Shown in pieces: positions 25,070 to 57,047 of a DNA stretch of 61,726 bases. A model generated the notes under the pieces. That model ran no database searches. It was given only the letters and a program-made list of their open reading frames with translations, and was not told the origin of the DNA. Location: UHGV virus genome UHGV-0342951, one strand, 5' to 3'. Positions within the stretch are counted from its first letter, which is position 1, and the number at the start of each line of letters is the position of its first letter. The DNA comes from a virus. Made by a program: the position numbers and the translations under genes.

Positions 25070-25360
25070 GTTCAAAACAAATACTCTCAAGTTTTGTCCC
25101 CTCGGCCCGAAGGCCGGTAATGATCCTTCGCCAATGTTGGAAGGGGTTTCCTGCCGGCGGCACCGCTCCTACCTCTCAGAGCTTTTAACCGCCGACCGCA
25201 GAGCGCGGAACTAGGATCTACATTCCGCGGTGCCTGTGCATTCCCAACCAACGTAGTCCGCATTCCTGCGGACTGAGGCTAGTCAACCAGAGGCTTTCCA
25301 CAAGCCTCGGCCTTCAGGCCGGGGTAGTTGACAACTTTCTCCCTATCAAATCACTCGCCT
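25070..25360 (-). ncRNA. Candidate omegaRNA (guide RNA scaffold) of the IscB element
   Basis: A 290-nt non-coding gap immediately 5' of iscB on the same strand. It is densely packed with GC hairpins (GGCCTGAAGGCC, GAGGCTTGTGGAAAGCCTC, GTCCGCAGGAATGCGGAC, CGCGGAATGTAGATCCTAGTTCCGCG, CCGGCCTTCGGGCCG). IscB omegaRNAs are encoded 5' of the ORF. Confidence 0.4.
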
Positions 25361-27541: not shown

Positions 27542-28195
27542 TTACGCAGTAAAACGAACGAGGGCCGACACATAGGACTGAGTCGTCATACCGGTGACAG
27601 CCAGTTTCACAGCCTTGCCTTTGAGTGCACCAAGTGTCTGCGGAGAGTCATTCAGCGTGATGGGGTTGGCCCCGGATTCCGTACTCAACACGATACTGAC
27701 ACCACTCGTTCCGGCACCATCGGCTTCGATATAGCTGAGAGTGGCATTGTTCCAGTCACTCGCAAGGACTGTGTGGATGACTTCGTCAGGGAAGGCAAAA
27801 TACAGCGGGAGGACGACAAAAGCGGAAGGCATATGTGCAGCCAGCCACTCCTGGTCGACCTGAATCACGCCCTCTTCGGTAATGGTGATACCTTCCCCAG
27901 CAGTCAGCGACCCACCGAGGACATCTTCAAGAGCCGTAAGGTCGATTTCCACTGCGATGGAATCGCCCTGCAAAGGAGCCTCTGCTCCGTCATTGAACGT
28001 GAGTATACCCCCCGTGCTCTTGAGCAGAAACTTATCGGGAACCGTGGGGTGTCCGCCAGCAGTCGAACCGTCATGGACGACCACGACATGCTTATCGGTG
28101 TCGACGGTGAGCTCACCGGGGAGGCCCTTGTATGTTTTGTGCTGGGCAGTCGTCCCCCTGAACTGCTGGATAGGACTGGAGTTGTTTCTCGCCAT
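27542..28195 (-). CDS. Short tail fibre paralogue (217 aa) sharing its N-terminal about 50 aa with the adjacent 452-aa fibre
   Basis: MARNNSSPIQQFRGTTAQHKTYKGLPGELTVDTDKHVVVVHDGSTAGG aligns with MARKTPDAIQQYRGTTAQHAAYTGKIGELTVDTDKKVVVVHDGVTAGG of the neighbouring gene. The C-termini are unrelated. Confidence 0.6.
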   Translation of the reverse strand: MARNNSSPIQQFRGTTAQHKTYKGLPGELTVDTDKHVVVVHDGSTAGGHPTVPDKFLLKSTGGILTFNDGAEAPLQGDSIAVEIDLTALEDVLGGSLTAGEGITITEEGVIQVDQEWLAAHMPSAFVVLPLYFAFPDEVIHTVLASDWNNATLSYIEADGAGTSGVSIVLSTESGANPITLNDSPQTLGALKGKAVKLAVTGMTTQSYVSALVRFTA

Positions 28196-28311
28196 ATGTA
28201 TATACCTACCTCTTTACATACTGCATTAGGAGGGGACGTATAGAAAACTACCCTCTCGAACAAGAGGGTGCAGCCGGGGGGCTTTCCTCGGCTGCACCCA
28301 TGGCAAAACGC

Positions 28312-29670
28312 TTAGGCGTCCATGGTGCCGTAGTCGGAATAGACCATCAGCTTGCCATTGTCGCACTGAATCTGATTGCCGGGGGTCTCGGAAATCATGG
28401 AGCAGCCCAGAGAACCTTCAGCGTTGCCGACCATATCGTTGACGATATTCTCGACCGGGGTCTTGAGGTCATTTTCAGTCAGCAGCGCACCCTTGTCAGT
28501 ACCGGTCTTGATGACATTACTGGCATCAGCAGACACGACCTTCACGGACAGCTTGCCGTCGGCACCTTCCTTGAGGGCGTTGTTCGTGTCAGTGGAGACC
28601 GTATTGGTGAAGTCCACCACGATGTTGCCGCTTTCGTCGAACTTGATACCGGTGCCCAGCTTGGCCGAGATGGTATGACCGTTGATGGTGATACCCTGAC
28701 CGGCGGTGTACACATCGATGAGTTCGGTGACATCCACATAGGTGTCAACCACGCTGTTGTCGGACAGCGCCCAGATGAAGTGCAGGTAAGTACCGGCCTT
28801 CAGACCCACCCGGGGCGTGAAAGAGACAGTGCCGCTGATGGTCGTACCAGCCACATTGAACGTGACGGAAGCCGTGGAATTGTCATCGAAGGTCACACGG
28901 GCCGGGCTGGTACGGTCTTCGACCGTTTTATCGTCGCCGTTGAACACGGCACGCACGGCAGCGACGGACGTACCGCCGGTGAGCATTTCAGTGCTGAAGG
29001 CAGCCGTACCGGCGGTACCCTTGGTGGTCTCGACCAGGACGCCGACAGCCTTGGCCCAGTTGCCAGCCTGGTCACGGAACATCAGGGACAGGCGGTAGTC
29101 ACCCTCCACAGCCTCACCGGCGGCATCGGGTTTGCCATGCACCAGTTCGACACCCTTGAGCACGGAAGTGCTGGACGGGACGGTCACGGTAGCAACTTCG
29201 GTAACACCGTCATGGCCGATGATTTTGAGCTCGCCGGAATACGGGTGGTAGGTCATGCTGAGGTCGGCGGCAACCTTGCCGTCGGCATCATGCAGAATCT
29301 TGTCGCCTGCGCGGATGATGAGATCGGCGTCAGGAGCCTTGGCATACAGCTTGTCATCAGTACCCACGGACAGACCGTTGTTGGCGTCGGTGGACACCAA
29401 GTCGGTAGCCAGGGAAGTCATGTCCACAGTGAGCGCCACATCGCCAGCGAGAGTGCCCTCGGTGGAGCCGTTCACTTTCAGGTGGGTGTCACCAGTGACC
29501 TTGCGGTCTTCACGCGCCATGGGCACGCCACCGGCGGTAACGCCGTCATGGACGACCACGACCTTCTTGTCGGTATCGACGGTGAGTTCGCCGATTTTGC
29601 CCGTGTACGCAGCATGCTGGGCAGTAGTACCACGATACTGCTGGATAGCGTCAGGAGTTTTTCGAGCCAT
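28312..29670 (-). CDS. Tail fibre protein (452 aa)
   Basis: Conserved fibre N-terminal module (see paralogue), then Thr/Val/Gly-rich repeats with recurring D-x-N-N-G-L motifs. Confidence 0.65.
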   Translation of the reverse strand: MARKTPDAIQQYRGTTAQHAAYTGKIGELTVDTDKKVVVVHDGVTAGGVPMAREDRKVTGDTHLKVNGSTEGTLAGDVALTVDMTSLATDLVSTDANNGLSVGTDDKLYAKAPDADLIIRAGDKILHDADGKVAADLSMTYHPYSGELKIIGHDGVTEVATVTVPSSTSVLKGVELVHGKPDAAGEAVEGDYRLSLMFRDQAGNWAKAVGVLVETTKGTAGTAAFSTEMLTGGTSVAAVRAVFNGDDKTVEDRTSPARVTFDDNSTASVTFNVAGTTISGTVSFTPRVGLKAGTYLHFIWALSDNSVVDTYVDVTELIDVYTAGQGITINGHTISAKLGTGIKFDESGNIVVDFTNTVSTDTNNALKEGADGKLSVKVVSADASNVIKTGTDKGALLTENDLKTPVENIVNDMVGNAEGSLGCSMISETPGNQIQCDNGKLMVYSDYGTMDA

Positions 29671-37496: not shown

Positions 37497-37784
37497 CTAC
37501 TTGAGCCACGCCGCCAGCGCAGCTTCTCCATCCGGGGTCAAAAGGTAATACCCACGCACATTGCCGCGATGTCTGGGCAGTTCGATACGAATGAGGAACC
37601 CCTTGCCACACAGCTTGTTGGCCATCGCGCAGGCCCGCATGGCAATACCCTGACGATACCGCGCAGACAGTTTCCCGATCTTCAACGGCCTCAACGCACT
37701 GATACCCAGCACATAGCCGAACGCCTGACCCCTCGGCAGGTCAGCCACGGCCTTCAGGATGCGGTATTCCGCCAGTGTCAGCAT
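37497..37784 (-). CDS. Hypothetical small protein (95 aa), possibly a winged-helix protein
   Basis: ORF in the track; its start overlaps the dUTPase stop. RGYYLLTPDGEAALAAWLK resembles PadR-type wing sequences, but weakly. Confidence 0.4.
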   Translation of the reverse strand: MLTLAEYRILKAVADLPRGQAFGYVLGISALRPLKIGKLSARYRQGIAMRACAMANKLCGKGFLIRIELPRHRGNVRGYYLLTPDGEAALAAWLK

Positions 37785-38299
37785 CAGTCGCCTCCCGTGG
37801 ACCCGAAGCCCTTCGTTTCCCTGTAGGTGTGCGACAATTCCTCGACCACGGCGAACTCAACGTCGATGCTGAGACCCTTGTTGATGTCAGCGACCACGAG
37901 CGCCGGGGCCATGATGGTCGGCACGATGATGAGCTGCGCCACCCTCTGGCCCTCATAGTAGGCCACAGTGGGCTTGCGCAGGAGCGACGCGGCGCCTCTG
38001 GCCTGCACGCTGTCCGCTTTGCGGAACAACACCTTCACCGTGCCCCGATAATCAGGGTCGATGACCTGGACACCGCTGCCCAGCATCTCCAGACCGGAAC
38101 ACACGACAGAGCTGCGAGCCACGAGCAGACCGGCGAACCCCACGGGTAACTCCATCTCCACACCGGTATCGAAACAGTAGACCCCATTCCGCCGTGTGAG
38201 CTTCGCACCCCAAAGGTCGAACCCCACGGCGCCGCTGCTCATGCGACACGGGACCTTCGCTCCCGAGAGTTTGAGCCTGCACGGGATGATGACAGCCAT
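37784..38299 (-). CDS. dut: dUTP diphosphatase (dUTPase)
   Basis: Motifs AVGFDL, GLLVARSS, VIDPDYRGTV and the C-terminal GFGSTG are the canonical dUTPase motifs. An AAGGAGG RBS precedes MAVIIP. Confidence 0.85.
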   Translation of the reverse strand: MAVIIPCRLKLSGAKVPCRMSSGAVGFDLWGAKLTRRNGVYCFDTGVEMELPVGFAGLLVARSSVVCSGLEMLGSGVQVIDPDYRGTVKVLFRKADSVQARGAASLLRKPTVAYYEGQRVAQLIIVPTIMAPALVVADINKGLSIDVEFAVVEELSHTYRETKGFGSTGGD

Positions 38300-38352: not shown

Positions 38353-38386
38353 CAAAAAACCCTCCCGCACTGGAGAGCGGGAGGGT
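38353..38386 (-). terminator. Rho-independent terminator (GACCCTCCCGC-tctccagt-GCGGGAGGG plus U6) ending the accessory transcript
   Basis: 9-bp GC stem followed by TTTTTT on the minus strand, immediately after the tandem repeat-like units. Confidence 0.55.
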
Positions 38387-38408
38387 CCAGAGAGGTGTGG
38401 CTCACCAG

Positions 38409-38506
38409 GTTTCAACCCACAGTCGCCGCGTCTGAATACGGGAGGGTCTTGTGAGAGGTGTGGCTCACCAGGTTTCAATCCGCAGTCGCCGCGTTCGCCG
38501 ACTGAC
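38409..38506 (-). repeat. Two tandem units (period 61 bp) each carrying a CRISPR type I-C-like repeat segment; one full 35-mer and one truncated 22-mer
   Basis: On the minus strand: GTCAGTCGGCGAACGCGGCGACTGCGGATTGAAACC, then 40 nt, then CGCGGCGACTGTGGGTTGAAACC. Each is followed by the identical TGGTGAGCCACACCTCTC, and then comes the terminator. Confidence 0.5.
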
Positions 38507-38905
38507 TTCACAGGAATGTATCCGGTCCCTGCACCATCCCGGGCGTATCACCCTAGTTTCACCCGGGACAGCGTTCAGGCAATTTTGGTTGTACCCCAGG
38601 GGCGTGCCTTAGTCAACAGTAAGCCGTATCCAGTGTGCCTTTTCTTTTGGCGGGGTCGTCCGTCTACAGATGCCCCTGGGGTACAAAATCAATATTGCAG
38701 CGGCGGCGGAGAAAACATCTCCATCTGTGTCAAGTCGTAAAATCTGGTGCCCCGCCCCATCAGCTCAACCGCAGGCGGTATGGGGCGGGGACTTTAAGTT
38801 TGGCGTTCCAGGGTCGGCGTCCGGTCGCGTACCCCAGAAACATATCGGGTGTGCAGTCACCCGACGACAAACAACACAAAACGACACATCGTCTTGCTGT
38901 TGGCT

Positions 38906-38993
38906 GTTTCAATCCGCACGACCCCTATCCGCCGACTGACTCCGCAGCCGACGGATAGGGGTCGTGCGGATTGCCCCTCCCTAAAGGGAGAGG
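38906..38993 (-). repeat. 87-bp composite element, copy 1 (minus sense): CCTCCCT hairpin, 22-bp arm and a type I-C-like 35-mer that together form a perfect long palindrome
   Basis: Minus strand reads CCTCTCCCTTTAGGGAGGGG-CAATCCGCACGACCCCTATCCG-tcggctgcggagtcagt-CGGATAGGGGTCGTGCGGATTG-AAAC. The first 46 nt after the hairpin are identical to those in copy 2. Confidence 0.55.
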
Positions 38994-39087
38994 TTACGGA
39001 AAAGGATTTCATCGGCTCCGCCGTCTTGTCAACCACTCTTTTCCCTGAAGGGGGAGGTTTCAAACCACAAAGGAATTTTTGATGAAC

Positions 39088-39753
39088 CTACTCGGAAGAA
39101 TCCTCAGCGTCAAGAACTTTCGGAGCCAGGGCCAGAATCTTGTGCATGGCCTGCCGCAGATAGGCGGCCTCCCACTCAGCGTCGCACAGAGCATGGTGTG
39201 CGATGGCAGTATCAGGAACTTCGACGGTGATGCCCATGGCCTTCGCCACCAGCTCCACGGTCCTGAGCGACTGGTTGTTCCGGTAGGTCCACACCTTCGA
39301 CAAGAAAGCGGAATCATCATAGCACGCAATCGCATCACGCCAGATGACATTATCGAACTCCGGTCCCTTTCCCCAGAACTGCACATCGGCGCAGGACATC
39401 AGGTCAGGGTCCGGCATGACCCAGCCCACAAAATCCACCACTGCCCGCCGCAGGGTACAAGCATCAGCATGGAACACCGCTTCCCGTGCAGCAGGACTGG
39501 TCTTCAGGGCCCACCACTGCACCGTAGCAAAATCCATGGCCCGGCCCGGCTGGGCGTCACCACGAATGGCACGATAGAACCTGCCGATGACTTCATAGTG
39601 TTCGTCGAGGGCCACAGCACCGATGGCGATGATGACAGGTCTGAGACCCAATCCGAGGGTTTCGATGTCGATGACCACATGCGACAGAGTGCTGTCCATA
39701 CATATGTGTTCGGTCAGCCACCCCCGTTCGATACCATATCCTTCCTTATTCAT
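39088..39753 (-). CDS. 3'-5' exonuclease, DnaQ-like DEDDh family
   Basis: VVIDIETLGL is the Exo I motif (D-x-E) and HHALCDAEWEA is the Exo III motif (H-x4-D). A GGAGG RBS precedes MNKEGYG. Confidence 0.8.
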   Translation of the reverse strand: MNKEGYGIERGWLTEHICMDSTLSHVVIDIETLGLGLRPVIIAIGAVALDEHYEVIGRFYRAIRGDAQPGRAMDFATVQWWALKTSPAAREAVFHADACTLRRAVVDFVGWVMPDPDLMSCADVQFWGKGPEFDNVIWRDAIACYDDSAFLSKVWTYRNNQSLRTVELVAKAMGITVEVPDTAIAHHALCDAEWEAAYLRQAMHKILALAPKVLDAEDSSE

Positions 39754-39893
39754 GTATGCCTCCTGGTGTTTCCGAGGTATATACAATAACAGCCGCAATA
39801 CATCAAGGGGATAATAAAAATTTTTCCCGGCAGACGTGAATATATTCGAGGGTGGGGGCCTGTCCAGATGGGGTGGGGGGAGGAAGTAATTTG

Positions 39894-39979
39894 TAATAGT
39901 GATGCATAGTAGGAGAGTTACGAAGGTGGAGGGAGGACGTTGGAATAGTAATGCATAGTAGGAAAGTTATGAAGGTGGA
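39894..39979. promoter_or_regulatory. Two 37-bp direct repeats (AATAGTRATGCATAGTAGGARAGTTAYGAAGGTGGAG) in the divergent early control region; operator candidate
   Basis: Copies at 39894..39930 and 39943..39979. The related ATGCATAGTAAAGCATAGTAAG lies at 38317..38340 in the dut promoter region. Confidence 0.4.
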
Positions 39980-40436
39980 GAAGGTTGTGAGTGCAACACA
40001 GAGTATATGTTTTCTCTACAGGTCAGCGAAACCGCCGTCCAAACCCACCCGGCCCTCGCCGAACGCGCCGCCTGCCTCGCGCCCAGGCCACCGCCTAAGT
40101 ACCTGAAATCATTGAACTTTCTTGTTTACAAAATACGTTATTGACACAACCCCTTGTCTGTGACAGTCTAACCTTAACAGGAAGAAGGAACCGCCTAGCG
40201 GACAGCCTCCCCTGCCTTGCTCTTTGACAATGCGGCCTGCCCGCCCATCCGCCTTGCGCCTTCCAGCGCCTAGGCGCCCACAAGCGCCCCCCTCGCGTCT
40301 GCCATCGTGCCACGTCGACAGGGGGCAGGGTGCCCGCCGGAAGACCACGCAAGGGGCACGGATGAACCGGCACAGCGCAGGCCAGACATAGGGACACCAC
40401 ACGGAAGCGGGACGGGCTGGAAATGGAGGTACTACC

Positions 40437-41126
40437 ATGACCCAGACCCAGACCCAGACCCAGACCCAGACCCAGACCCAGACCCAGACCCAGACCAGCA
40501 AGCCCAGCGCCGTACCCACGGCCAAGGTCTTCCAGACGTATGTCGACGAACTGGTGGCCGCCGGTGCCGCCGTCGAAAAGGCCGCTGCCCGCATTGCGCT
40601 GGCCGCTGCCCGGCAAGCGGCGCATCGGTCAAGTCTCGGCTACCTGAACGCCGCACACGCCGCCTTCAAGGCGTGCCACGTCAATTGCACGGCGCAGTTG
40701 ACCAAGTATGCGCTTGGCCTGTTCGGCGGCCTCGCTGCCGATGACAAGGGCAAGCCCATGATTGCGCGGTCAAAGTCCATCCTGCGCCTCACCGATGCGC
40801 AGGAACGGAAGCAGAACGGCGGCGACGCTTTTGCGTGGGCTGCCGAAAAGATCAGCCCCGAAGCCAAGGAAGAACTTGCCCGGGCACGCCGCGCGCTGGC
40901 GCACCCTGACTTCGCGGACTTCCTGTCCGCGCCTACAGCCGAGGCCAAGTATATCAAGGAAGACGGCTTGACCGCTTCGGAACGTGAGCTGCTGGCGTTG
41001 CTCAACTGGGCACGCCGTAACAACAAGTCGTCGATGGCAAAGCGCGCCGGTGAGCGCGGCTACGCGGAGCTGCAGAACGCGCTCCGTACCGTCAAGGCCA
41101 TGTTCAAGGAATTCAACGAAGAATAA
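40437..41126 (+). CDS. First early-operon protein (229 aa): (TQ)9 N-terminus followed by an Ala-rich helical protein
   Basis: GGAGGT RBS 8 nt upstream. The antisense ORF 40095..40625 (GLGLGL...) is judged spurious. Confidence 0.6.
   Translation: MTQTQTQTQTQTQTQTQTQTSKPSAVPTAKVFQTYVDELVAAGAAVEKAAARIALAAARQAAHRSSLGYLNAAHAAFKACHVNCTAQLTKYALGLFGGLAADDKGKPMIARSKSILRLTDAQERKQNGGDAFAWAAEKISPEAKEELARARRALAHPDFADFLSAPTAEAKYIKEDGLTASERELLALLNWARRNNKSSMAKRAGERGYAELQNALRTVKAMFKEFNEE
40439..40496 (+). repeat. Hexanucleotide microsatellite (ACCCAG)9 encoding (TQ)9 immediately after the start codon
   Basis: Perfect 9-unit tandem repeat seen directly in the sequence. Confidence 0.9.
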
Positions 41127-41129
41127 AAA

Positions 41130-42210
41130 CGCAGCCCTCCCGCTTCCATGTGGTGCCCCTATGGCTGGGATTCCCGCCTGAGTGATAGGTAAACGATGGA
41201 ACCGCACATGGTGGTGCGCTCCAGTAATCTGGTGCGTCCAGTGTGAACATGTGCGGCAAGTGTCGTGTGGTGTGAAGACACGACACAAAGGGCCGATGTC
41301 TGACAAGCATACTGCGTGTGCGAGTCATACATAGCGGCCCATGTTTGACTAGCACACGGCGTTAAATTATTATGTCGTGTGCTAGTCAAATAATTATTGC
41401 CTACGCAGGAATGCTCACGGAAGTTGTATGACAGGCCGTGTGCGCCTACGCAGAAATGCTCGCGGAAGTTGTACGACATGCCGTGTGCGCCTACGCAGGA
41501 ATGCTCGCGGAAGTCGAAAGGAAAAACAACTTACGTTAAATTTAATAAGTTTTCCTAATAAGAAAATCGTCTTTTTCGTGAGTGAATTTTTACGATTTTT
41601 GCTTGATTTTTACTCACGCGAAAGTTTAGCTCACAGATAAGTGCAGGTGTAAAACTTTTGCGTTAGTGCCAAACTTTCGCGTGAATGCAGCACAAAAACT
41701 GCATGATGCAGGATAAAAATTACGTTGCATTCTAAAATGTAAGGCAAACTCACTCAAAAGTTTGGCACTAACGCAAAAGTTTCACAGTTTGACTTTCGCG
41801 TGAAAATGAACTTTCAATCTTCTATGCGTTTTCCTGCGTAGGCTGCATGTCACCAAACACCAAGGGAGAGATAAAGAAAAAAGTAAATAATAATAATATA
41901 TTATATATTATATATATATTATATATATTCTTCCTTCTCATGTAAGAAATTTCTTTTGATTTTTTCTGCCAATTTTTGGGCTTTTTCTGGGGATTTTTTC
42001 GAGGTGGAGAATGTTATGCGTTTTTCGCTTTTGCACATGTCTTTTGTGCTGTTTTCCGCCTTCCTCGAAATCTTGGCCGTTTTATCTCAGATTGCCGTAA
42101 AACTTTCAAACTTCTATGCGTAACCCTCTCTACCGTCGAAACCTTCTCCACTTCGCCACCTACGCATACAAGTTTTCAACCCTAAAAAGTGTCGAGGGAG
42201 GACACACAAA
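41130..42210. promoter_or_regulatory. 1.1-kb non-coding control block: origin-of-replication candidate and early promoter region
   Basis: Contains a 15-bp perfect inverted repeat (41344..41390), 2.7 iterons of 45 bp (41399..41516), further inverted and direct repeats of TTCGCGTGA and CTTTTGCGTTAGTGCCAAACTTT, a (TA)n tract at 41885..41929 and phased T-tracts at 41950..42080. Confidence 0.45.
41399..41516. repeat. Iteron-like direct repeats (GCCTACGCAGGAATGCTCGCGGAAGTTGTACGACATGCCGTGTGC, 2.7 copies, period 45)
   Basis: Seen directly; an inverted partial copy CCTGCGTAGG lies at about 41835. Confidence 0.8.
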
Positions 42211-42495
42211 ATGGCCGTGAAGTTGTATCGTTTGATTAACGCCAGTAAGACCCGAAAAGGACGTGCGGCATGGCGGCTTGACGAGGTGATGTATCCGGCA
42301 AGCCTCCCCTGCAATCCGGTAATGCCGGATGAATTGCAGGCGGCAATCTGGAAACAGCTCGACGAAGAATCTTGGTTCCCGCCCATCGTGGCGTTCGAGT
42401 GGCACGACGGGAATCTGTACTTGGTGCAGCATCCGCGTAACAACAGCACCGTAGAACAGGTGCTGACCGCGTGGCGCAAGACGAATGCTGACTAA
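42211..42495 (+). CDS. Hypothetical protein (94 aa)
   Basis: ORF in the track; first gene after the control block. Confidence 0.5.
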   Translation: MAVKLYRLINASKTRKGRAAWRLDEVMYPASLPCNPVMPDELQAAIWKQLDEESWFPPIVAFEWHDGNLYLVQHPRNNSTVEQVLTAWRKTNAD

Positions 42496-42541
42496 CATTC
42501 ACCCCGGCCCTTCTTCGGGCCGGGTTTTTGGAGAAAGCCCT

Positions 42542-42961
42542 ATGAAGAAGATTGAACTGAAGTTGTCCGACATCCGTTCTGTGATGGAAGAAACCTACAG
42601 GCACATCGGCAAGGTTACGGGCCACGACGATGTCGACCTCACCAAAGAACAGCATCATTCCCGTGTCATCCCCACTCCGAAGAGCGAAGCCTCCAACGAA
42701 GAGGTGCTGGTGTGCTGGAGTGCTGCCTCTGCGGCTTCCAGCGCTGACGAGTTGACGCCGAACGACTTCGACGCTGGCCTGCTGCTGACAGGACATGCCG
42801 AACCCGAAGTTACTGGCGCCATCATCCTGACCCTGTGTGACAGGCTGCTCAAGGTCGGCGTCGAAGCCGGGGCCTTCCCCGACATTCGCGTGCCGCTGGC
42901 TATGCTGGCGTCGAGCATCATCCCGGACATGTCCGATGATGACAGGTGCGGCCATGCCTAG
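42542..42961 (+). CDS. Hypothetical protein (about 139 aa; start at MKKIELK)
   Basis: GGAGA RBS upstream of the internal ATG. Confidence 0.5.
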   Translation: MKKIELKLSDIRSVMEETYRHIGKVTGHDDVDLTKEQHHSRVIPTPKSEASNEEVLVCWSAASAASSADELTPNDFDAGLLLTGHAEPEVTGAIILTLCDRLLKVGVEAGAFPDIRVPLAMLASSIIPDMSDDDRCGHA

Positions 42962-43136
42962 CGGTATCCCCAGCTTGTATATCGACCTCAACAGCGGCGA
43001 GGTCTTCCTCGGCCTCGCCGCTGTGCGTCTGGCGCGGCCCGGCGCGTTCATCGTCCCTGTGTCCTGGGATGACCCTGACCTCAACCCTGCTGACCCTGCC
43101 ACTTGGGCAGGCTATATGGAGAAGCACCATGTGTAG
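42957..43136 (+). CDS. Small hypothetical protein (about 59 aa)
   Basis: ATG overlaps the upstream stop. Translationally coupled small ORF. Confidence 0.3.
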   Translation, partial: PSGIPSLYIDLNSGEVFLGLAAVRLARPGAFIVPVSWDDPDLNPADPATWAGYMEKHHV

Positions 43137-43458
43137 ACCAAACAACAAGATTTCCAAGGCCGCTGCGCAGGCGTTCATCGAGCGCCGTCCCTTCCGCCGG
43201 GACAACACGGAAGTCGTCGTCACTTCCCCCTCCTGCGCCGTGTTGAAGTTGCACGGCCACGTCATCGGCGAGAACTCCGCGTCCCGTGGGATGCATCTGA
43301 CGATGGCTGGGTGGGGCACCATGACCACGGCGGCCCGGCTCAATGCCGTCATGCAGGCCCTGGGGCTGGGCATCCGCTGGTTCCGCAAGAACTGGGAGTG
43401 GCACTACGGCGACAGGGTGCTGGAGAGCACGAACGAAGTCGTGGAAGTAGAGGTGTAA
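43129..43458 (+). CDS. Hypothetical protein (about 109 aa; start at MCRPNNK)
   Basis: GGAGAAG RBS. The ATG overlaps the upstream stop. Confidence 0.4.
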   Translation: MCRPNNKISKAAAQAFIERRPFRRDNTEVVVTSPSCAVLKLHGHVIGENSASRGMHLTMAGWGTMTTAARLNAVMQALGLGIRWFRKNWEWHYGDRVLESTNEVVEVEV

Positions 43459-43459
43459 C

Positions 43460-44419
43460 ATGGAATACTGCCTCTACGACTTCGGTGAGATTTTCACCGG
43501 CAAGAAGTCGGGTAAGCTCGTGCCCGGCTTCACCGGCGACCCTGTGCATCCGCTGGCTCCGGCCTGCGTGGCCGACTATGAGTACCCGGCGTGGGCCCGT
43601 GACGTGTTCCTGTGGTGGTGCGGCGAGAAGCCCGAGCCGTTGTACATCGGCGGCCCGACGGGCTGCGGCAAGTCAAGCCTTATCCGGCAGGTGGCGAGCC
43701 GCCTGCTCTACCCTGTCTATGAGGTGACGGGGCACAGCAGGCTGGAGACTCCCGAGCTTGTCGGCCATCATGCCCTGAAGGACGGCGCCACTGTCTGGGT
43801 GGACGGCCCGCTCACCTCAGCCATGCGGCATGGTGGCATATTCTTAATCGACGAAGTGGACTTGCTCGACCCGGGCACGGCCACTGGTCTGAACACTGTG
43901 CTCGACGGCGCTCCCCTGTGCATTCCTGACACGGGAGAGACTGTCATACCCCATCCCGGGTTCCGGTTCGTCGCCACGGCGAACACCTTCGGCGACGGTG
44001 ACATGTCGGGCAGGTATCAGGGCACGCTGCGGCTGAACGCCGCCTTCATGGACAGGTTCGTGGTGCTTGAGGCCACGTTCCTGCCCGAAGTCGCGGAGCT
44101 GCGCCTGCTCGCCCGTCGCACCCCGTCGCTGCCGGAAGAACTGCGCAAGGGCATGGTGCGGCTGGCGGGCATGGTGCGCGACCAGTCGAAGCTGCCCAGC
44201 GATGTGCCCCGGGCCCAAGCCCTCGAAGGCATGACCTTCTCGACCCGCACGCTGCTCAGGTGGGCGACGTGGACGGAGGCGTGCAGACCGCAGGCCATGC
44301 GGGCCGGTGAAGCCCCTGTGGCGTATGCGCTCACGAGAGCGCTGGGCAACAGGTGCGGGGAAGGCGGCAAGCGTGTGCTGGATGAACTTGTCCAGCGTGT
44401 GTTAGACATCAACAAGTAG
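43460..44419 (+). CDS. MoxR/CobS-like AAA+ ATPase (AAA_5)
   Basis: Walker A GGPTGCGKSS; Walker B GGIFLIDEVDLL; sensor/arginine region ATANTFGDGDMSGRYQGT. 319 aa. Confidence 0.8.
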   Translation: MEYCLYDFGEIFTGKKSGKLVPGFTGDPVHPLAPACVADYEYPAWARDVFLWWCGEKPEPLYIGGPTGCGKSSLIRQVASRLLYPVYEVTGHSRLETPELVGHHALKDGATVWVDGPLTSAMRHGGIFLIDEVDLLDPGTATGLNTVLDGAPLCIPDTGETVIPHPGFRFVATANTFGDGDMSGRYQGTLRLNAAFMDRFVVLEATFLPEVAELRLLARRTPSLPEELRKGMVRLAGMVRDQSKLPSDVPRAQALEGMTFSTRTLLRWATWTEACRPQAMRAGEAPVAYALTRALGNRCGEGGKRVLDELVQRVLDINK

Positions 44420-44431
44420 GAGGATTGACCT

Positions 44432-44965
44432 ATGGGTATCTACAGTGATGTTGCCCTGGTGATGAACGCCAAGGGTATGGAATGTCTCAACGCGCAGCTC
44501 GAAAAGCTGGACAGGGACATGCGTGATGACGTGCTGGAGTTCCTCGATTGGGCCGACGAAGAGGCCGAGAGCGCGAGCGAATGGTTGCTGTGCTGGCGTG
44601 ACATCAAGTGGTACGGAGACGACACTATCGATGTGCTCGTGGGTATCCTGGATGCGATGCCCAAGGCGTACTACAGGTTCAAGCGCGTTGAAGAGACGGG
44701 CGACACCGAATACTACGGTAGGCTGTGTGGCGAGTTCAACGTCATCGCCGTGCACAAGCTGGAGTGGAGGGATTTGACCGCCGCGCCTGCGCCGACGACG
44801 TACTCTCTGCGACCGCCCGTCATCACGTCTGAGGATGTGGCCGATATGCTCGGCATGACCGTGGCTCAGGCCGAAGAGTTCCTGCTCGATAACAGCACGC
44901 GCATCATCCAGCGCATGGTGGCCTCCGCTTGGTCGGCCATCGCAGACATCAAGCGCAGCATGTGA
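44432..44965 (+). CDS. Hypothetical protein (177 aa)
   Basis: ORF in the track between the AAA+ and vWA genes. Confidence 0.55.
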   Translation: MGIYSDVALVMNAKGMECLNAQLEKLDRDMRDDVLEFLDWADEEAESASEWLLCWRDIKWYGDDTIDVLVGILDAMPKAYYRFKRVEETGDTEYYGRLCGEFNVIAVHKLEWRDLTAAPAPTTYSLRPPVITSEDVADMLGMTVAQAEEFLLDNSTRIIQRMVASAWSAIADIKRSM

Positions 44966-44975
44966 GGATACGACG

Positions 44976-45296
44976 ATGACGCGCAAAGAATACCTCGACC
45001 TTTCCCGTCTCGGCAATGGCATCGAAGCCTTCCACCAGTATTACAGCCAGTTCGTGACGCCGTATGTGACGGAAGTCGTGCGGATGTGCATCGGTGAAGA
45101 CATCATCCGGGCTTCGAAGGACGCGCACTTCAACGACATCCCCATCAAGTTGTGGGACAAGCTCGTTCCGCTTGTCCGTCACGGCATCGCCCGCAAGAAC
45201 GAAGAGCTCAACGGGACGCTGGCCGTATCCGAGTGTGAGTGCGTGTGCACGATGAAGACGGCGGCCCATATCATCAGGAACAGTTTCAACAACTAG
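44976..45296 (+). CDS. Hypothetical protein (106 aa)
   Basis: ORF in the track. Confidence 0.5.
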   Translation: MTRKEYLDLSRLGNGIEAFHQYYSQFVTPYVTEVVRMCIGEDIIRASKDAHFNDIPIKLWDKLVPLVRHGIARKNEELNGTLAVSECECVCTMKTAAHIIRNSFNN

Positions 45297-45308
45297 GAGG
45301 AAAGCACC

Positions 45309-46247
45309 ATGGCCGAAAACAACGTGAGCTACATGAACAACTGCGTGTATCTGAAGCTGGACATCTCCATCTGGACGGGCAAGGCCCGCCTCACCCCCGA
45401 AGACATCCCGAACGCCGTGGTCGACATGCCGCCCGAGGCGTTGGCTACGCTTGGTTCCAAGCGCATCTTCGACCCGCAGGCGTTGCGCCCCTTCAACACG
45501 GCGAAGACCCGGGCGTTCCGCACCTGCGACCAGTACGGTGTGCGCTGCATGGGCGGCTGGCTGGTGGACAACGGCGTCCTCAACAATCTGACTGCCGAGC
45601 TCGACAAGCTGCGCGGAGAGTTTGAATACAGCGTCGGTACGTTCATCTCCACCTATGAGGATGGGGCATCCAACTGGCTCCAGCAGTTTCCCGCATGGGA
45701 GGGCATCATCCGTGCCGCCTTGCCCGACAGCACGGACATCGGGAAGAAGTTCGCGTTCAGGTACTACGTCCTCAAGGTGCAGACCGAGAACCATGATGCC
45801 CAGGATGCGACTTCCGAGGCCCCGTCAACGGCTGCTGCCACCATCGCCGCCGAGATTGCCCGCATCAGGGAGCAGGTGTTTGGCGATGACCGCACGACGC
45901 CCGTGACCAGCAAGACCTTCTGCTGCCTCGACACCCTCGCAGACCGGTGTGACAACATGTCCTTCGTGCATCCCGGCTTTGCCCATCTGGCCCATCTGCT
46001 CCGCAGCATCGTGGTCAACAGCACCAGCGTGGATGTCGTGCGTGCCTTCCTGACTGGGCTCTCCACGCCCGAGGCCGTTGCCGCCGTGACACAGGAGACC
46101 CGCATCTATGACTTCGAGAAGGACAGCCTCGATATGCCCGAGCCTGCTGCTCCCGTGGAGAAGCCCGAGCCTGCGGCCCCCGTCGTCACCAGCCAGCCCA
46201 CCGCTGCCGACGACAGTCTCGCTGCCCTTCTCGCTGACTTCATTTGA
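45309..46247 (+). CDS. Hypothetical protein (312 aa) with a C-terminal PEPAAPV repeat; possibly the conserved partner of phage CobS/CobT-like modules
   Basis: ORF in the track. Any DUF assignment is from memory only and is not verified. Confidence 0.55.
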   Translation: MAENNVSYMNNCVYLKLDISIWTGKARLTPEDIPNAVVDMPPEALATLGSKRIFDPQALRPFNTAKTRAFRTCDQYGVRCMGGWLVDNGVLNNLTAELDKLRGEFEYSVGTFISTYEDGASNWLQQFPAWEGIIRAALPDSTDIGKKFAFRYYVLKVQTENHDAQDATSEAPSTAAATIAAEIARIREQVFGDDRTTPVTSKTFCCLDTLADRCDNMSFVHPGFAHLAHLLRSIVVNSTSVDVVRAFLTGLSTPEAVAAVTQETRIYDFEKDSLDMPEPAAPVEKPEPAAPVVTSQPTAADDSLAALLADFI

Positions 46248-46250
46248 CAT

Positions 46251-46337
46251 CCTCCCTTCAGGGAGGGCCAATCCGCACGACCCCTATCCGTCGGCTGCGG
46301 AGTCAGTCGGCGGACGGGGGCGACTGTGGATTGAAAC
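46251..46337 (+). repeat. 87-bp composite element, copy 2 (plus sense): CCTCCCT hairpin, 22-bp arm and a type I-C-like 35-mer GTCAGTCGGCGGACGGGGGCGACTGTGGATTGAAAC
   Basis: CCTCCCTTCAGGGAGGG-CCAATCCGCACGACCCCTATCCGTCGGCTGCGGAGTCAGTCGGCGGA... is identical over 46 nt to the reverse complement of copy 1. It ends in GGATTGAAAC 9 nt before the RBS of the vWA gene. Confidence 0.55.
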
Positions 46338-46355
46338 ATGTAAGAGGTGACACCT

Positions 46356-48254
46356 ATGTATGATATATTAGATGTTGTGTTACTATGTCGTATGATGTCG
46401 GCACAGTACAGAATCAAGATTCAACCCGGGGTCTGCTCAACAGCGGACAAGTTCGATGCACAGGCATGGTGCCGGAAGGATAAGGACGGCTATGTCCTGC
46501 AAGTCCCCTTCTCCCCGCGCATGACTGATGAACAGTGGCGCTACCTGCGCGGTTACATCGACCACGAATGCGGGCACGTCAAGTTCACGGACTTCGAGAC
46601 CTATGCAAACATGTATAGGTCTGTCGTGGCTGACTGCCTGCAATACAAGCCAGGGGCTTCCGTCACGCTCAAAGATTTTCTCCATGATTATGCCTCTATG
46701 GTTATCAATATTCTTGAAGACGTGCGTATCGAACGTCTCATGGGTATCGACTTCCCAGGCTCCAGAACGAACCTCAATACGTTGAGCGAGTATCTGTTCA
46801 AGGACTGCTGCTCTATGAGTATGATGATGGGCAATGGTATGACCGGAAGACTTTACAGTCTCCTGTTCATGCGTGTCAGGTCGCTCATCAATCCGGCGCT
46901 GGAAGAGTCTGCACAGCTCTTGTACGATGACCTGAAGGCCGATGTTCAGGTCGAAAACTACACAGACTACACCCGTCATCTGGACGCGGTGTGGGACATC
47001 GGTGACAGCTTCGTGCAGAATTGGAATGTGGAGTGTGCTGCCCTGGAGTTCATCCGTATCGTCATCGAAGTCCTCGAAGACTATACGAACACGACAAAGG
47101 GTACCAACAACAGAAAATCTTCCGGTACTACCAGCGATTCCTCGGCTGGTGGCACTGGCGATTCTTCTGATGGTGACACCAGCGATTCCTCAGATGGTGA
47201 CACCGGCGATTCCTCGAAGGATGCGAATCCTTCGAGGAAGAAGTCTGTCACTATCAGCGCCAAGACTGTTTCCTCTATGGCGGCTGATTTGTATGACATG
47301 CAACGGGATGATAAGGGTAATATCCGTAGGCGTTTCCTGGATGCTGTGCTGGATATGACGGACTCGCTTGAGAACAACAACCAAATCTCCGATGAAGACC
47401 TGGCGTTCATGGATGCCATGTTCTCTCGTACAGCGGAGAGACTGGACACGCTGCTCGACAAGCACAAGATGGACGAACTGGCTGGTGGTAAGCGTGTGTA
47501 TATCACCGATTGCAGTCATGTACATGCGCTGAGTCCTGAGCAACGGGGCGACATGGACGTTGTGATGTACAACCTTTACGGCAGGCTTGCCGACGTGTTG
47601 CAGACCATGACCCTGGTACGACACAGCACCGGCCTGTGCGGCGCTCGCCTGGATGCGCGTGTGCTGCATCGGACATCCGTCGGGGACGGCAGGATTTTTT
47701 CCAAAAAAGTGCAGCGGTTGCGGCGTGTCACGGAAGTAGCGCTGCTGTTCGACGCCAGCGGAAGCATGCGTCTGACTGAATATGGCCAGAGCCACAACAA
47801 TGAAATGGCGCAGTGCATGGCTCTCGGTTGTCTCAAGGCACTGCGGGCTCTGCCGGGGGTCAAGTCTTCTCTGAGCGGATTCTCCAACGGAGAAATGTTC
47901 GTCATGTCTGACTATGGCGCCCCCATACATGAAGTCATCTTGTCTGCCATTGGTGGTACGCCGCTCGGGGCATCGCTTGTCGAACTCACGTCGCAGTTCT
48001 CCGACGGCCCTGACGTGCGTCGCATCATCCTGTTCTTCACCGACGGGTTCCCGGACAATGTCGGGTCTGTGACCATGGCTCTCAATCTGGCGAAGCGTTC
48101 CGGCATCGAGGTCTACGGCATCGGGCTGCAGACGAAGGCTATCCATACCTTCATGGACAGCGACCATAGCATTATCGTCAACAGTATCCACGAATTGGCG
48201 GGCGGCATGTGTGACATGCTCCGCAAGGGAATGGTGCGGGCGTATGAAGTATAA
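46356..48254 (+). CDS. vWA-domain protein (CobT-like partner of the AAA+ ATPase) with an N-terminal HExxH motif
   Basis: MIDAS motif LLFDASGSM; an acidic Ser/Asp-rich linker; GYIDHECGHVKF contains H-E-x-x-H. AAGAGG RBS. The track starts at a GTG 9 nt upstream. Confidence 0.75.
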   Translation: MYDILDVVLLCRMMSAQYRIKIQPGVCSTADKFDAQAWCRKDKDGYVLQVPFSPRMTDEQWRYLRGYIDHECGHVKFTDFETYANMYRSVVADCLQYKPGASVTLKDFLHDYASMVINILEDVRIERLMGIDFPGSRTNLNTLSEYLFKDCCSMSMMMGNGMTGRLYSLLFMRVRSLINPALEESAQLLYDDLKADVQVENYTDYTRHLDAVWDIGDSFVQNWNVECAALEFIRIVIEVLEDYTNTTKGTNNRKSSGTTSDSSAGGTGDSSDGDTSDSSDGDTGDSSKDANPSRKKSVTISAKTVSSMAADLYDMQRDDKGNIRRRFLDAVLDMTDSLENNNQISDEDLAFMDAMFSRTAERLDTLLDKHKMDELAGGKRVYITDCSHVHALSPEQRGDMDVVMYNLYGRLADVLQTMTLVRHSTGLCGARLDARVLHRTSVGDGRIFSKKVQRLRRVTEVALLFDASGSMRLTEYGQSHNNEMAQCMALGCLKALRALPGVKSSLSGFSNGEMFVMSDYGAPIHEVILSAIGGTPLGASLVELTSQFSDGPDVRRIILFFTDGFPDNVGSVTMALNLAKRSGIEVYGIGLQTKAIHTFMDSDHSIIVNSIHELAGGMCDMLRKGMVRAYEV

Positions 48255-48674: not shown

Positions 48675-49292
48675 ATGAGTATCCAAGAAGACGTACAGAA
48701 CATGCCTCCCATCGAGGTCATTCTCAAAATCATCCTTCCCAAGATGAACAACCGCATCAAGGCGCTGAACGCCGCTGTCCAGGCGCTCCAGGAAGAAGTC
48801 GAAGCGCTGAAGGCTGCGGCTCCGAAGAAGCGCGCGCCGCGCAAAAAGAAGGCCGACGACGAAGCTCCGGCTCCCGCTGCCCAGCCTGCTCCGGCTCCCG
48901 CTGCCCAACCTGCTCCGGCGCCTGTGCCCCAGCCTGCTCCGGCACCTGTGCCCCAGCCTGCTCCGGCGCCCGTGCCCCAGCCGGATACTGTGACCTATCC
49001 TGCCCCTGCGCCTTCTGCCCAGTCTACGGGTACTCTGCTGTGTACCTACGACAGCGAGCAGGATGAGTTCGTGCCGCTGAATATCGAAGGGTGGCCGCTC
49101 ACTGGTAACAACGTCGGACTCGCCTTGTATGCCATGGCTACGATGCGTAACAACATCGGCGACGCTGCGACCATGTCCAATCTGCCCGAGGGATTCATCA
49201 AGTTCGTCACCGATATGACGCCCGAGCAGCGTAAGCAGGTCAACGGCAAGTTCCCTGCGCAGAATCCCGCCTATCAGGAATACTTCGTCTAA
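48675..49292 (+). CDS. Hypothetical protein (205 aa) with a (PAPAAQ/PAPVPQ)n linker
   Basis: ORF in the track; GGAGGG RBS. Confidence 0.5.
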   Translation: MSIQEDVQNMPPIEVILKIILPKMNNRIKALNAAVQALQEEVEALKAAAPKKRAPRKKKADDEAPAPAAQPAPAPAAQPAPAPVPQPAPAPVPQPAPAPVPQPDTVTYPAPAPSAQSTGTLLCTYDSEQDEFVPLNIEGWPLTGNNVGLALYAMATMRNNIGDAATMSNLPEGFIKFVTDMTPEQRKQVNGKFPAQNPAYQEYFV

Positions 49293-55849: not shown

Positions 55850-57047
55850 GACCAATCTTGTTCCTGTCGTCGTCAATAACCAGCCCCCTGTGCTCGCCGA
55901 CGGGCAGTTCTCTGGTGTCGTTGACACCCTGATGGACAACGCTTTCTCCGGCTTCGGCGCCGGGCTGCGTATCCTCAAGCCGGGGAAGATGAGCTTCAAG
56001 CTCATCGAGAATCGTCAGGAAGTCGACATCCCCAACGGTCAGGTCTTTGGCGTCCTTCTGGGTGTGGCGCCTTGCAACTACGCTTCGTGGTATGCCAGAC
56101 AGTATGCGCCCGGGCAGGAACCGTCTCGCCCTGACCTCGTGTGGATGATGCCTACGGCTGACACGTTCCCCGACGCGCTCCCTGCCGAATACCACCAGAA
56201 GGTGAGCGTCAACGGTCAGGAGCGCTGGGGTTTCCGTATCGCCAGACGTACCGTGTGGGCCCTGATGACCAACCAGAACGGGCAGTTCTACCTCGACCTT
56301 GAACGCCCCGTCGTCCTGGACATCACCAGCACCAGCCTCTACGGAAACTCTGACCCCCGCAGCAACAGCTACCGCTGGGGCGGCATCAAGGGCTTCTGCG
56401 ACCGCCACAGCCAGCCCGGTGTTTTCCGCTGCAACCCGGCCATGTTCGTGACCCAGATTATCCTTGACCCGCAGAGCCCCGTCTCCGGCGTCATGCTGTT
56501 CCGTCCCAACCTTGACCAGAACGGCAATCCGTCCTACCTTGACAGCCAGACTTACACGGCTGTCATCCAGACGGCCAGTACCGAGCGTATCGCGGAGATG
56601 CTTCGGGTCAATGAAATCCTGACCTACTCCCCCAATGGTGCCGGGGTTATCCAGCCTGTCCCTGCGGCGGTCAATATCGCCAACGGTGTGCAGCCCATGC
56701 CCCAGCCCATGGCCCAGCCGGTGCAGCAGCCCATGGCCCAGCCTGCGCCTCAGCCGGTACAGCAGCCCGTGGCCCAGCCTGCGCCTCAGCCGGTGCAGCA
56801 GCCCGTGGCCCAGCCGGTGCAGCAGCCTATGGCCCAGCCTGCGCCTCAGCCGGTGCAGCCGGTGCAGCAGCCTGCCCCTGCTGGTATGAATGATATGCTG
56901 TCCCGCGCTGCGGCTGTGCTGGATGGTGCCCCTGCTCCGGCCCCTGCTCCGGCCCCTGCTCCGGCTCCGGCCCCGGCTCAGACCAATGTGAGCAAGGAAG
57001 CGTCTGATGCCCTCAGCGGAATTTTGGCGGATGTTGCTGGTTACTAG
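55842..57047 (+). CDS. Hypothetical protein (about 401 aa; start at MSETNLV) with a C-terminal (QPVQQPVAQPAP)n and (PA)n tail; possible ssDNA-binding or recombination role
   Basis: GGAGAAG RBS. Position between the helicase and primase genes. No motif. Confidence 0.55.
   Translation: MSETNLVPVVVNNQPPVLADGQFSGVVDTLMDNAFSGFGAGLRILKPGKMSFKLIENRQEVDIPNGQVFGVLLGVAPCNYASWYARQYAPGQEPSRPDLVWMMPTADTFPDALPAEYHQKVSVNGQERWGFRIARRTVWALMTNQNGQFYLDLERPVVLDITSTSLYGNSDPRSNSYRWGGIKGFCDRHSQPGVFRCNPAMFVTQIILDPQSPVSGVMLFRPNLDQNGNPSYLDSQTYTAVIQTASTERIAEMLRVNEILTYSPNGAGVIQPVPAAVNIANGVQPMPQPMAQPVQQPMAQPAPQPVQQPVAQPAPQPVQQPVAQPVQQPMAQPAPQPVQPVQQPAPAGMNDMLSRAAAVLDGAPAPAPAPAPAPAPAPAQTNVSKEASDALSGILADVAGY

Follow-up and report, generated by a model that had tools for sequence, protein, structure and literature searches.

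The uncultivated gut phage genome UHGV-0342951, treated here as one stretch of 61,726 nt (the window), carries two palindromic sequences in inverted orientation, and these are very probably independent insertions of a single non-autonomous mobile element of about 180 nt from the chromosomes of gut Desulfovibrionaceae. The original prediction had read them as an 87-bp composite unit flanking a 7.3-kb early control segment, and had proposed either inversion of that segment or a small mobile unit of the MITE type (miniature transposable elements bounded by inverted repeats) that carries a CRISPR-like repeat. The mobile unit is strongly supported by at least 101 host loci, a copy in an unrelated phage fragment, sharp ends and a conserved target, but the likeness to a MITE stops at the ends, which are not terminal inverted repeats.

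Insertions and empty sites in the phage

A repeat search of the window paired positions 38922–38990 with 46252–46320 (69 nt, 94% complementary), confirming two inverted copies. Read on both strands, the copies share 46 contiguous identical nt (CAATCCGCACGACCCCTATCCGTCGGCTGCGGAGTCAGTCGGCGGA), a CCTCCC..GGGAGG mini-hairpin and an end of ...GGATTGAAAC, as had been reported. The 31-nt end of the copies occurred in none of 100 shuffles, and the GKRTTGAAAC motif was observed four times in the window against 0.37 expected (minus strand at 38409, 38472 and 38906; plus strand at 46328). The 87-bp unit is not the whole element. Copy 1 is a full-length element of 178 nt on the minus strand (39083..38906), which follows the consensus of 46 aligned copies over positions 1–159 at 96% before a private 3' arm, and for which related phages have empty sites. 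It consists of the left end ATCAAAAATTCCTTTGTGGTTTGAAAC, hairpin 1, a TTGACA block that is conserved among the 46 copies (39032–39027, minus strand), hairpin 2, a long hairpin and the tail ...GGATTGAAAC; the unit formerly taken as copy 1 (38906..38993, minus strand) is its right half, with hairpin 2, the 29-bp hairpin and the tail. Copy 2 is an internally deleted element of 96–98 nt on the plus strand (46242..46337/46339), which matches consensus positions 95–182 at 97% and runs from AT through TTGACA, hairpin 2, the long hairpin and the tail GGATTGAAAC to AT. Directly 5' of each copy stands TTC (39084..39086, minus strand; 46239..46241, plus strand), the conserved target trinucleotide.

Both copies lie directly 3' of operon genes and in the sense orientation of their own operons, which agrees with the original prediction. 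On a crude gene map of the surroundings, copy 1 was inserted 4 nt past the stop codon of an Rv2179c-like exonuclease gene (39088–39753, minus strand), in a 788-nt non-coding gap before the dUTPase gene (37784–38299, minus strand). Copy 2 occupies a 144-nt gap between a DUF3150 gene (45309–46247, plus strand) and a VWA gene (46392–48254, plus strand), and the stop codon of the DUF3150 gene (46245–46247) is now inside the insert. RNA folding gave strong hairpins for both copies, namely a 29-bp stem in copy 1 (−74.9 kcal/mol, z −11.7; 27 Watson-Crick pairs and 2 G.U pairs, the latter confined to the sense strand) and a bulged form of this stem in copy 2 (−55.3 kcal/mol, z −5.9). The perfect 22-bp palindrome described for copy 1 is present, but the decay ascribed to copy 2 is not, as the imperfect arm of copy 2 is the 46-copy consensus. 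The 3' arm of copy 1 was converted to the perfect complement of its 5' arm, a change private to the window; both the same locus of a related contig (L002) and the 46-copy consensus have GGGGCGACTGTGG instead. The perfect palindrome is thus the derived state and not the ancestral one.

Related phages preserve the sites before insertion. Nine related contigs, collected by pattern and protein searches of IMG/VR plus one metagenome scan, were mapped onto the window, and all are collinear with it. One of them, contig 169709 (L008 and L002), carries both copies and runs unbroken from window position 54274 to 26225. Three relatives (L003, L005 and L007) precisely lack the 178-nt block 39083..38906 and show the empty site ...CTTCTTCCGAGTAGGTTC|AGCCAACAGC... 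(shorter left flank ...GAGTAGGTTC); the contig from which L007 derives has a copy-2 locus 99% identical to that of the window. Two others (L014 and L016) lack copy 2 and have the empty site ...GACTTC|ATGTAGGAGGTGACACCTATG. The copy-2 site shows five other allelic variants among relatives, and five filled alleles there have lost different left-hand parts and kept the right end in every case. At the DNA level, no close relative of the window was found among GenBank phages, and the window terminase has only ~30% identity to phages of Proteobacteria. The same 178-nt cassette recurs at 89% identity, with both flanks different, in a fragment of a P2-like tail module (L006) that has no other similarity to the window; there it is flanked by the tape-measure gene and the gpX gene and runs antisense to each of them. 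In a separate observation, a 2.9-kb contig of a 'Bacteroidales bacterium' assembly (L118, SFIS01000137.1) is 92% identical to window 44419–47280, including a copy-2 allele, and is most likely a mis-binned phage fragment rather than host evidence.

These relatives bear directly on the proposed inversion, in which the inverted copies would be recombination sites that flip the 7.3-kb early-control segment as a switch. Inverted repeats of 69 nt at 94% do bracket the divergent early region, and their length could in principle allow rare homologous inversion. However, the nine relatives show one orientation only, including the contig with both copies, and gene order is unchanged in the three relatives without copy 1 and the two without copy 2, an outcome that the original prediction had itself named as refuting inversion. 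No recombinase or invertase was found among the scanned neighboring open reading frames (ORFs), which matched dUTPase, exonuclease, AAA/MoxR, DUF3150, VWA or Kyano_Gp96 or had no match, with several small ORFs unannotated. A repeat dispersed over at least 101 chromosomal loci accounts for the sequence without any switch, and we give the inversion almost negligible probability. That the copies are inverted is incidental, as every insertion takes its strand from the TTC^AT site that it uses.

The element in Desulfovibrionaceae chromosomes

A 19-nt core (GGMGACTGYGGRTTGAAAC) scanned against 185,579 species-representative genomes gave at least 120 matches. The complete composite element, comprising hairpin 2, the CAATCCGCAC arm, the long hairpin and the tail, was found at the at least 101 loci mentioned above, in at least 13 Desulfovibrionaceae assemblies, so that the suggested search of host genomes for additional copies was amply rewarded. 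The highest numbers were in Mailhella MGBC107932 (at least 28 loci) and Candidatus Mailhella excrementigallinarum (at least 26), and in this respect the element has the MITE trait of a small, non-coding sequence with many dispersed copies in single assemblies. Mailhella Lapin-011 has at least 18 loci and the metagenome-assembled genome (MAG) OH_HBB_87 at least 11, with smaller numbers in Desulfovibrio spp. among the matches listed, including D. piger ATCC 29098. Eighteen matches in other phyla, again among the matches listed, had no hairpin context and were dismissed as chance; one of them is a 'mini form' in Stenotrophomonas (L033) that lies within a 796-aa ORF, and the other 17 are likewise from outside Desulfovibrionaceae. 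One further match is a mis-binned fragment of this phage group. The host records are for the most part MAGs, and all copy counts given here are minimum values. Many host copies lie at contig ends, as expected because repeats break assemblies. Flanking host genes encode UvrA, IspH, RNase HI, ThiE, FtsK, FliF and catalase; these are chromosomal housekeeping genes, and the host copies are therefore not prophage copies. Since the home of the element is the chromosomes of Desulfovibrionaceae, gut members of this family (Mailhella and Desulfovibrio spp.) are likely the hosts of the phage. Mailhella contigs hold up to several elements per 8 kb (e.g., L048 and L116), and at L026 4127–4330 a second, inverted element stands head-to-head with, or nested in, another copy.

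Across 46 aligned full-length copies of the element, mean column identity is 86% and modal length is 178–180 nt. The consensus starts with ATCAAAAATTCCTTTGTGGTTTGAAAC, hairpin 1 (CTCCCCCTTCAGGGGGA) and AAAGAGnAG-TTGACA-AGACGGCGAAGCCGATGAAATCCTTTTCCGTAAC, and continues with hairpin 2 (CCCTCCCTTCAGGGAGGGG) and the long hairpin and tail CAATCCGCACGACCCCTATCCGTCGGCTG-CGGAGT-CAGTCGGCGGATGGGGCGACTGTGGATTG-AAAC, between the fixed ends AT CAAAAATTCCTTTGTGGTTTGA ... GGCGACTGTGGATTGAAAC. It has no coding capacity and carries two small GC hairpins and one long hairpin, all three conserved in the 46 copies. Terminal inverted repeats are absent from the consensus, in which the left end ATCAAAAATTCCTTTGTGG and the reverse complement of the right end ATGTTTCAATCCACAGTCG agree by eye at 9/19 positions. 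Internally deleted or left-truncated forms with an intact right end are common (copy 2, L010–L013, L018, L053, L076 and L123). Hairpin arms have been re-matched repeatedly and in either direction, the 3' arm being converted in window copy 1 and the 5' arm in L102 and L011, and the loop, or the loop with its arms, is flipped in L010, L012 and L013. This re-perfecting in either direction fits a hairpin-forming single-stranded intermediate. No Rfam family reached its gathering score on the element, and matches to mraW and MIR4380 were rejected as generic long-hairpin matches that occur on both strands.

Insertion takes place at TTC^AT, is site-specific and has a single orientation, as follows from the sharp flank logo and from ends that are not inverted repeats. 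The left flank is T in 68, T in 81 and C in 75 of 86 distinct flanks, the right flank is A in 91 and T in 93 of 96, and the flanks beyond TTC and AT are random. The phage empty sites agree with this host logo (TTC|AG... for copy 1 and TTC|AT... for copy 2). AT is found on both sides at 89 of the 96 sites and at the copy-2 site, and could equally be the terminal two bases of the element. Copy 1 has AT on the left and AG on the right; duplication of AT and AT as part of the element both fit.

In host genomes, the target often coincides with the start codon of a housekeeping gene. The left junction TTCAT reads ATGAA on the opposite strand, and roughly half of the chromosomal copies have an ORF of at least 60 codons beginning there. 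For ORFs of 150 codons or more, the share is 35% of sites compared with 18% of control ATGAA sites (p = 7e-4). In the junction proteins, the Pfam profile match begins at residue 3 for LytB, at residue 2 for RNase H and at residue 12 for ThiE, and with matches beginning so near residue 1 the junction ATG is the native start codon. The left end of the element places AAAGGAATTTTTG immediately upstream of this ATG, and we infer that it acts as a built-in Shine-Dalgarno sequence that would make insertion at a start codon tolerable. To our knowledge, neither a built-in Shine-Dalgarno sequence nor start-codon docking has been described for the palindrome-associated elements derived from IS200/IS605 (PATEs) or for the REPINs, two families of HUH single-strand transposon derivatives. 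Two loci from different assemblies (L091 in OH_HBB_87 and L116 in Ca. M. excrementigallinarum) have the element directly at the start codon of one and the same gene of ~1110 aa (N-terminus MKTWRADLHIHSRFS...), which points either to an old shared insertion or to reuse of the site.

The anatomy of the element, hairpin-rich and strand-specific, without inverted ends and with a short asymmetric target, suggests that an HUH-type transposase acting on single strands mobilizes it in trans, in the manner of IS200/IS605, IS91 or REPIN/RAYT. A point against this is that no autonomous copy and no transposase was found in ~0.8 Mb of fetched host DNA, which is a weak negative. Distant pairs of left and right ends were considered as an autonomous transposon and rejected, since they enclose ordinary genes or spurious ORFs and the only long ORF encodes a pseudouridine synthase. 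Kinship to the IscB/omega-RNA transposon of the window was also rejected, as the ends are unrelated.

Among known families, the IS200/IS605 PATEs and the REPINs come close to the element. Like them, it is short, non-coding and high-copy, lacks terminal inverted repeats, has hairpin-rich ends, and stands in strictly one orientation beside a short asymmetric target (here TTC^AT, or TTCAT|). Its long hairpin also resembles a REPIN in consisting of two inverted palindrome-containing units. It differs from these families in that neither a TnpA nor a RAYT sharing its ends was found in the ~0.8 Mb of host DNA, that the hairpins at its two ends are not the same, and that AT is possibly duplicated; the GTAG/CGTC tag of REPINs is missing from its consensus. 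Classical MITEs such as Correia/NEMIS are similar in being ~100–200 bp long, dispersed and intergenic, in having size variants by internal deletion, and in that they can carry regulatory signals and form RNA hairpins when co-transcribed. However, their terminal inverted repeats and symmetric target duplication by a DDE transposase contrast with an element that has neither inverted ends nor orientation-independent insertion, and because it has no inverted ends the element is not a classical MITE. We found no published description of such an element or of a MITE in Desulfovibrio or Mailhella (Desulfovibrionaceae), and none of a CRISPR-like MITE or of a transposable element ending in a CRISPR repeat. 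The element is apparently undescribed so far.

The right end and type I-C CRISPR repeats

The last ~35 nt of the element (GUCAGUCGGCGGAUGGGGCGACUG|UGGAUUGAAAC) comprise a short 5' overhang (GUC), a stem, a loop and an 11-nt 3' tail, UGGAUUGAAAC. Type I-C repeats are built from a 2-nt overhang, a stem of ~7 bp, a loop and a 3' tail of 11 nt, with UGG following the site of cleavage, and Cas5c recognizes mainly U-G-G and the tail, not the loop (PMC8524198). The corresponding stem of the element has 6 bp with a 10-nt loop. A covariance model was made from six I-C repeats in the solitary repeat unit (SRU) table of the RNA anti-CRISPR (Racr) paper and run on both window strands with filters off. The best match, at 19.4 bits (E 0.0023), was a solo right-end fragment termed unit A; next came copy 2 at its right end with 19.1 bits (E 0.003), and third the right end of copy 1 with 18.8 bits (E 0.0037), where the match covers the tail only; the next match in the window had E 0.46. 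A degenerate second repeat tail in the left end of the element (GTGGTTTGAAAC, 11/12; 39057..39068, minus strand) gave a weak match of 9.3 bits.

A real Desulfovibrio repeat has the same end. The pDV1 array of D. vulgaris Hildenborough contains 28 repeats of GTCGCCCCCCACGCGGGGGCGTGGATTGAAAC beside cas3-cas5c-cas8c-cas7c-cas4-cas1c-cas2, and the final 12 nt of this repeat are identical to the end of the element. The type I-C protospacer-adjacent motif (PAM) is TTC (PMC8406640), the same as the target trinucleotide of the element. In Mailhella MGBC107932, the locus L071 1–5700 (CAJTSU010000075.1 8001–16000) encodes cas5c-cas8c-cas7c-cas4-cas1c-cas2 at 42–70% identity to the D. vulgaris Cas queries, and no CRISPR array follows cas2 within contig bases 8001–16000. 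A 161-nt element copy inserted at TTTC|AT in the sense orientation ends 33 nt upstream of the cas5c start codon. With the I-C operon and the element in one locus, the matching subtype is present in at least one host of the element. The likeness of the right end to a type I-C repeat is genuine in both sequence and structure.

Right-end fragments also occur alone in the phage. Unit A (consensus 145–180; 38472..38510, minus strand) has the stem and the 11-nt tail CGGAUUGAAAC, and unit B (consensus 162–180; 38409..38430, minus strand) is a shorter fragment identified by its consensus match and the GKRTTGAAAC motif; the consensus matches themselves cover 38472–38507 and 38409–38427. The same 19 nt, CTGGTGAGCCACACCTCTC, follow unit A (38453–38471) and unit B (38390–38408) as a direct repeat (38390..38471, minus strand), and an intrinsic-terminator-like hairpin with a U-run closes the block (38357..38388, minus strand). 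The whole block (38357–38510, minus strand) resembles a two-unit mini-array. It is conserved in L003, L005 and L009, present as one unit in L007, and decayed in L002, which had been considered an empty site for unit A and was rejected as such. No target of the 19-mer was found in L071, L137 or the 0.8 Mb of host loci.

Several observations weigh against a CRISPR-related function of the right end. In the stable fold of the full-length consensus, 7 of the 11 handle bases pair with the 5' (antisense) arm. The isolated 35-nt right end does not have the I-C fold as its minimum-energy structure, a fold that unit A does have. The Rfam family CRISPR-DR9 scored 17.5 bits against a gathering score of 45, and CRISPR-DR10 was also below threshold. 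Covariation in the hairpins is weak, with little variation among young copies. An array-type pattern of this repeat was absent from the 185k genomes; in metagenome contigs the same pattern returned no array and only one phage relative, and the fetched host loci contained no periodic tails.

The phage insertions might do nothing specific and act only through generic hairpin effects on mRNA 3'-end stability, termination or RNase III cleavage, as hairpins of Correia elements do in Neisseria. The very stable hairpins immediately 3' of stop codons, the polymorphism and decay of insertions among close relatives and the weak covariation agree with such passive passengers. However, this account leaves unexplained the I-C-like tail with its TTC target and the persistence of right-end fragments in a conserved block that a terminator closes, and we hold it to be possible but doubtful. 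The I-C likeness suggests that the right end, when transcribed in the phage operons along which both copies are oriented, may bind host Cas5c/Cascade as a decoy or yield a CRISPR RNA (crRNA)-like RNA. As a decoy, right-end RNA would mimic the I-C repeat and sequester Cas5c/Cas7 in dead-end complexes, with the element as its delivery vehicle. This would account for the top I-C model matches in the window, the 12/12 tail identity with a real Desulfovibrio repeat, the I-C operon in an element-bearing host, the sense position of both copies directly after operon genes (as RacrIC1 follows acrIC5), the retention of the right end in all five filled copy-2-site alleles despite differing left-hand losses, and the conservation of units A and B with their own terminator in relatives. 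A decoy is nevertheless unlikely, given that full-length copies have most of the handle base-paired, that no known array contains the stem sequence, that close phage relatives do without one or the other copy, and that the element is far commoner in host chromosomes than in phages, which phage counter-defense does not predict.

A role as a guide-RNA module appears quite improbable, though its geometry holds at every site. In such a module, the right end and the flank would be transcribed as scaffold or handle plus guide, and an effector would attack uninserted alleles, thereby promoting retention or homing. Candidates for this effector are the type I-C Cascade-Cas3 of the host and an unlinked TnpB-like nuclease whose target motif would be TTCAT; in phages it would act against siblings without the insert. 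Because insertion is always directly after TTC, the guide would match an empty site with TTC, the I-C PAM, on its 5' side, and the empty alleles TTC|AGCCAACAGC... and TTC|ATGTAGGAGG... indeed match the right flanks of the window over ~35 nt with 0–2 mismatches. The conserved TTGACA block points toward the right end, a copy stands 33 nt upstream of cas5c in a Mailhella I-C operon without an adjacent array, and the same phage harbors an IscB gene with omega-RNA of the IS200/IS605 family, meaning that elements of this kind are active here. This evidence is entirely circumstantial, and a promoter scan recognized no −10 element with the TTGACA block. The stable fold leaves the handle paired, the fetched loci (~0.8 Mb) showed neither TnpB nor TnpA in the vicinity of a copy, and TTC may be merely a transposase target. 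A single copy near cas genes among about 100 is possibly chance, at roughly a few percent. A more elaborate version, to which we assign a very low probability, is a transposon-like parasite that has adopted an I-C repeat as its right end and recruits host Cascade-Cas3 to destroy empty sites. As insertion is exactly 3' of the PAM TTC, each insertion would give rise to a transcript resembling a crRNA, made of the 11-nt handle and the flank, for which only the uninserted allele offers a perfect target next to a PAM, and the cas5c-upstream copy in the array-less Mailhella operon would fit such a guide association. If true, the element would gain retention or homing in chromosomes and serve as a phage weapon against siblings without it, forming a type I analogue of the TnpB/IscB guide-RNA strategy with a borrowed effector.

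Comparison with described systems shows partial matches to each. The phage copies fall under the descriptive definition of SRUs in Camara-Wilpert et al. 2023 (PMC10651486). Like the Racr candidates and SRUs presented there, they are repeat-like phage units away from cas genes, of the subtype of the host clade (I-C) and downstream of an operon gene. Racr candidates were defined by close matches to known repeats, whereas the element agrees with such repeats only in its GUC start, stem architecture and 12-nt tail; it is also mostly chromosomal, part of a larger mobile unit, and has a handle masked by the antisense arm. Neither the element sequence nor its contigs are among the entries in the accessible part of the published SRU table. 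In the preprint on viral crRNA-like regulators (Cracrs; Liu et al., bioRxiv 10.1101/2024.10.29.618823), two-unit I-C arrays are described, and units A and B share their order of psi-repeat, spacer-like part, psi-repeat, spacer-like part and terminator, but both spacer-like parts here are the same 19 nt. A Cracr has at least 9 PAM-proximal matches to a cas or toxin promoter. No such target, sought as TTC plus a 7–10-nt seed match for four flanks, was found in the two I-C loci (L071 and L137) or in 0.8 Mb of host loci, where the search gave a single 7-nt match that lies within a gene and is put down to chance. As in TnpB reRNA and IscB omega-RNA, the right end is followed by the flank as a 'guide' and the target motif lies 5' of the empty site, an arrangement by which TnpB cuts uninserted alleles; in contrast to those systems, the element has no linked nuclease gene, its scaffold-like part is short (~90 nt), and its tail is that of a type I-C repeat and of no described reRNA. 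As published, neither SRUs nor Cracrs were presented as pieces of a transposable element that has many copies in chromosomes.

Other window features and significance

The window contains further mobile and repetitive features. An IscB gene (RRXRR and HNH domains, 429 aa; 23801–25090, minus strand) lies in the phage structural region, directly downstream of a HEARO/omega-RNA (25117–25332, minus strand; 141 bits, E 2e-29), and the two form an RNA-guided nuclease module of the IS200/IS605 family. In L005 (7453–7820) and L009, an insert of ~370 nt with a ~110-aa protein behind a TTGACA promoter occupies the spot that matches window ~38723–38735; this variable spot was rejected as a mobile insert, being a small accessory gene deleted in the window with its promoter left. 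The 1.08-kb non-coding region between the divergent operons holds three tandem 45-nt repeats (GCCTACGCAGGAATGCTCACGGAAGTTGTATGACAGGCCGTGTGC; 41399–41533), and two 49-nt repeats lie at 39876–39973; both sets may be iterons or operator arrays. Several genes, on either strand, contain long runs of in-frame tandem repeats of 12 or 24 nt (types GCTGCTGCACMG and CAGCCnGTG; 5816–6042, 19695–19958, 48864–49025 and 56688–56992), which encode low-complexity stretches rich in Q, P, A and V. Two adjacent tail-fibre-like genes (27542–29670, minus strand) have a 5' stretch of 132 nt in common (28042–28173 and 29517–29648, 73% identical), and the larger one has an Mtd_N domain (major tropism determinant, N-terminal).

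As insertions of a chromosomal mobile element, the two palindromes connect an uncultivated 62-kb gut phage to its likely Desulfovibrionaceae hosts through a common host-specific element. They also bring to light a high-copy element of gut sulfate reducers whose lifestyle is unusual: it inserts strand-specifically at TTC^AT, in many cases precisely where an essential gene has its start codon, and brings along a putative Shine-Dalgarno sequence in its end. For surveys of SRUs and Racrs, the finding advises caution, because phage repeat-like units can be fragments of host transposable elements. We hypothesize that the element may have decoy (Racr-like) or guide (Cracr-, TnpB- or homing-like) activity; with a right end that is a credible mimic of the I-C repeat and a target that is the I-C PAM, it makes testable the idea that small mobile elements and phages could borrow a host type I effector, much as IS200/IS605 elements employ TnpB or IscB, either as a target for decoys or as a guided nuclease.

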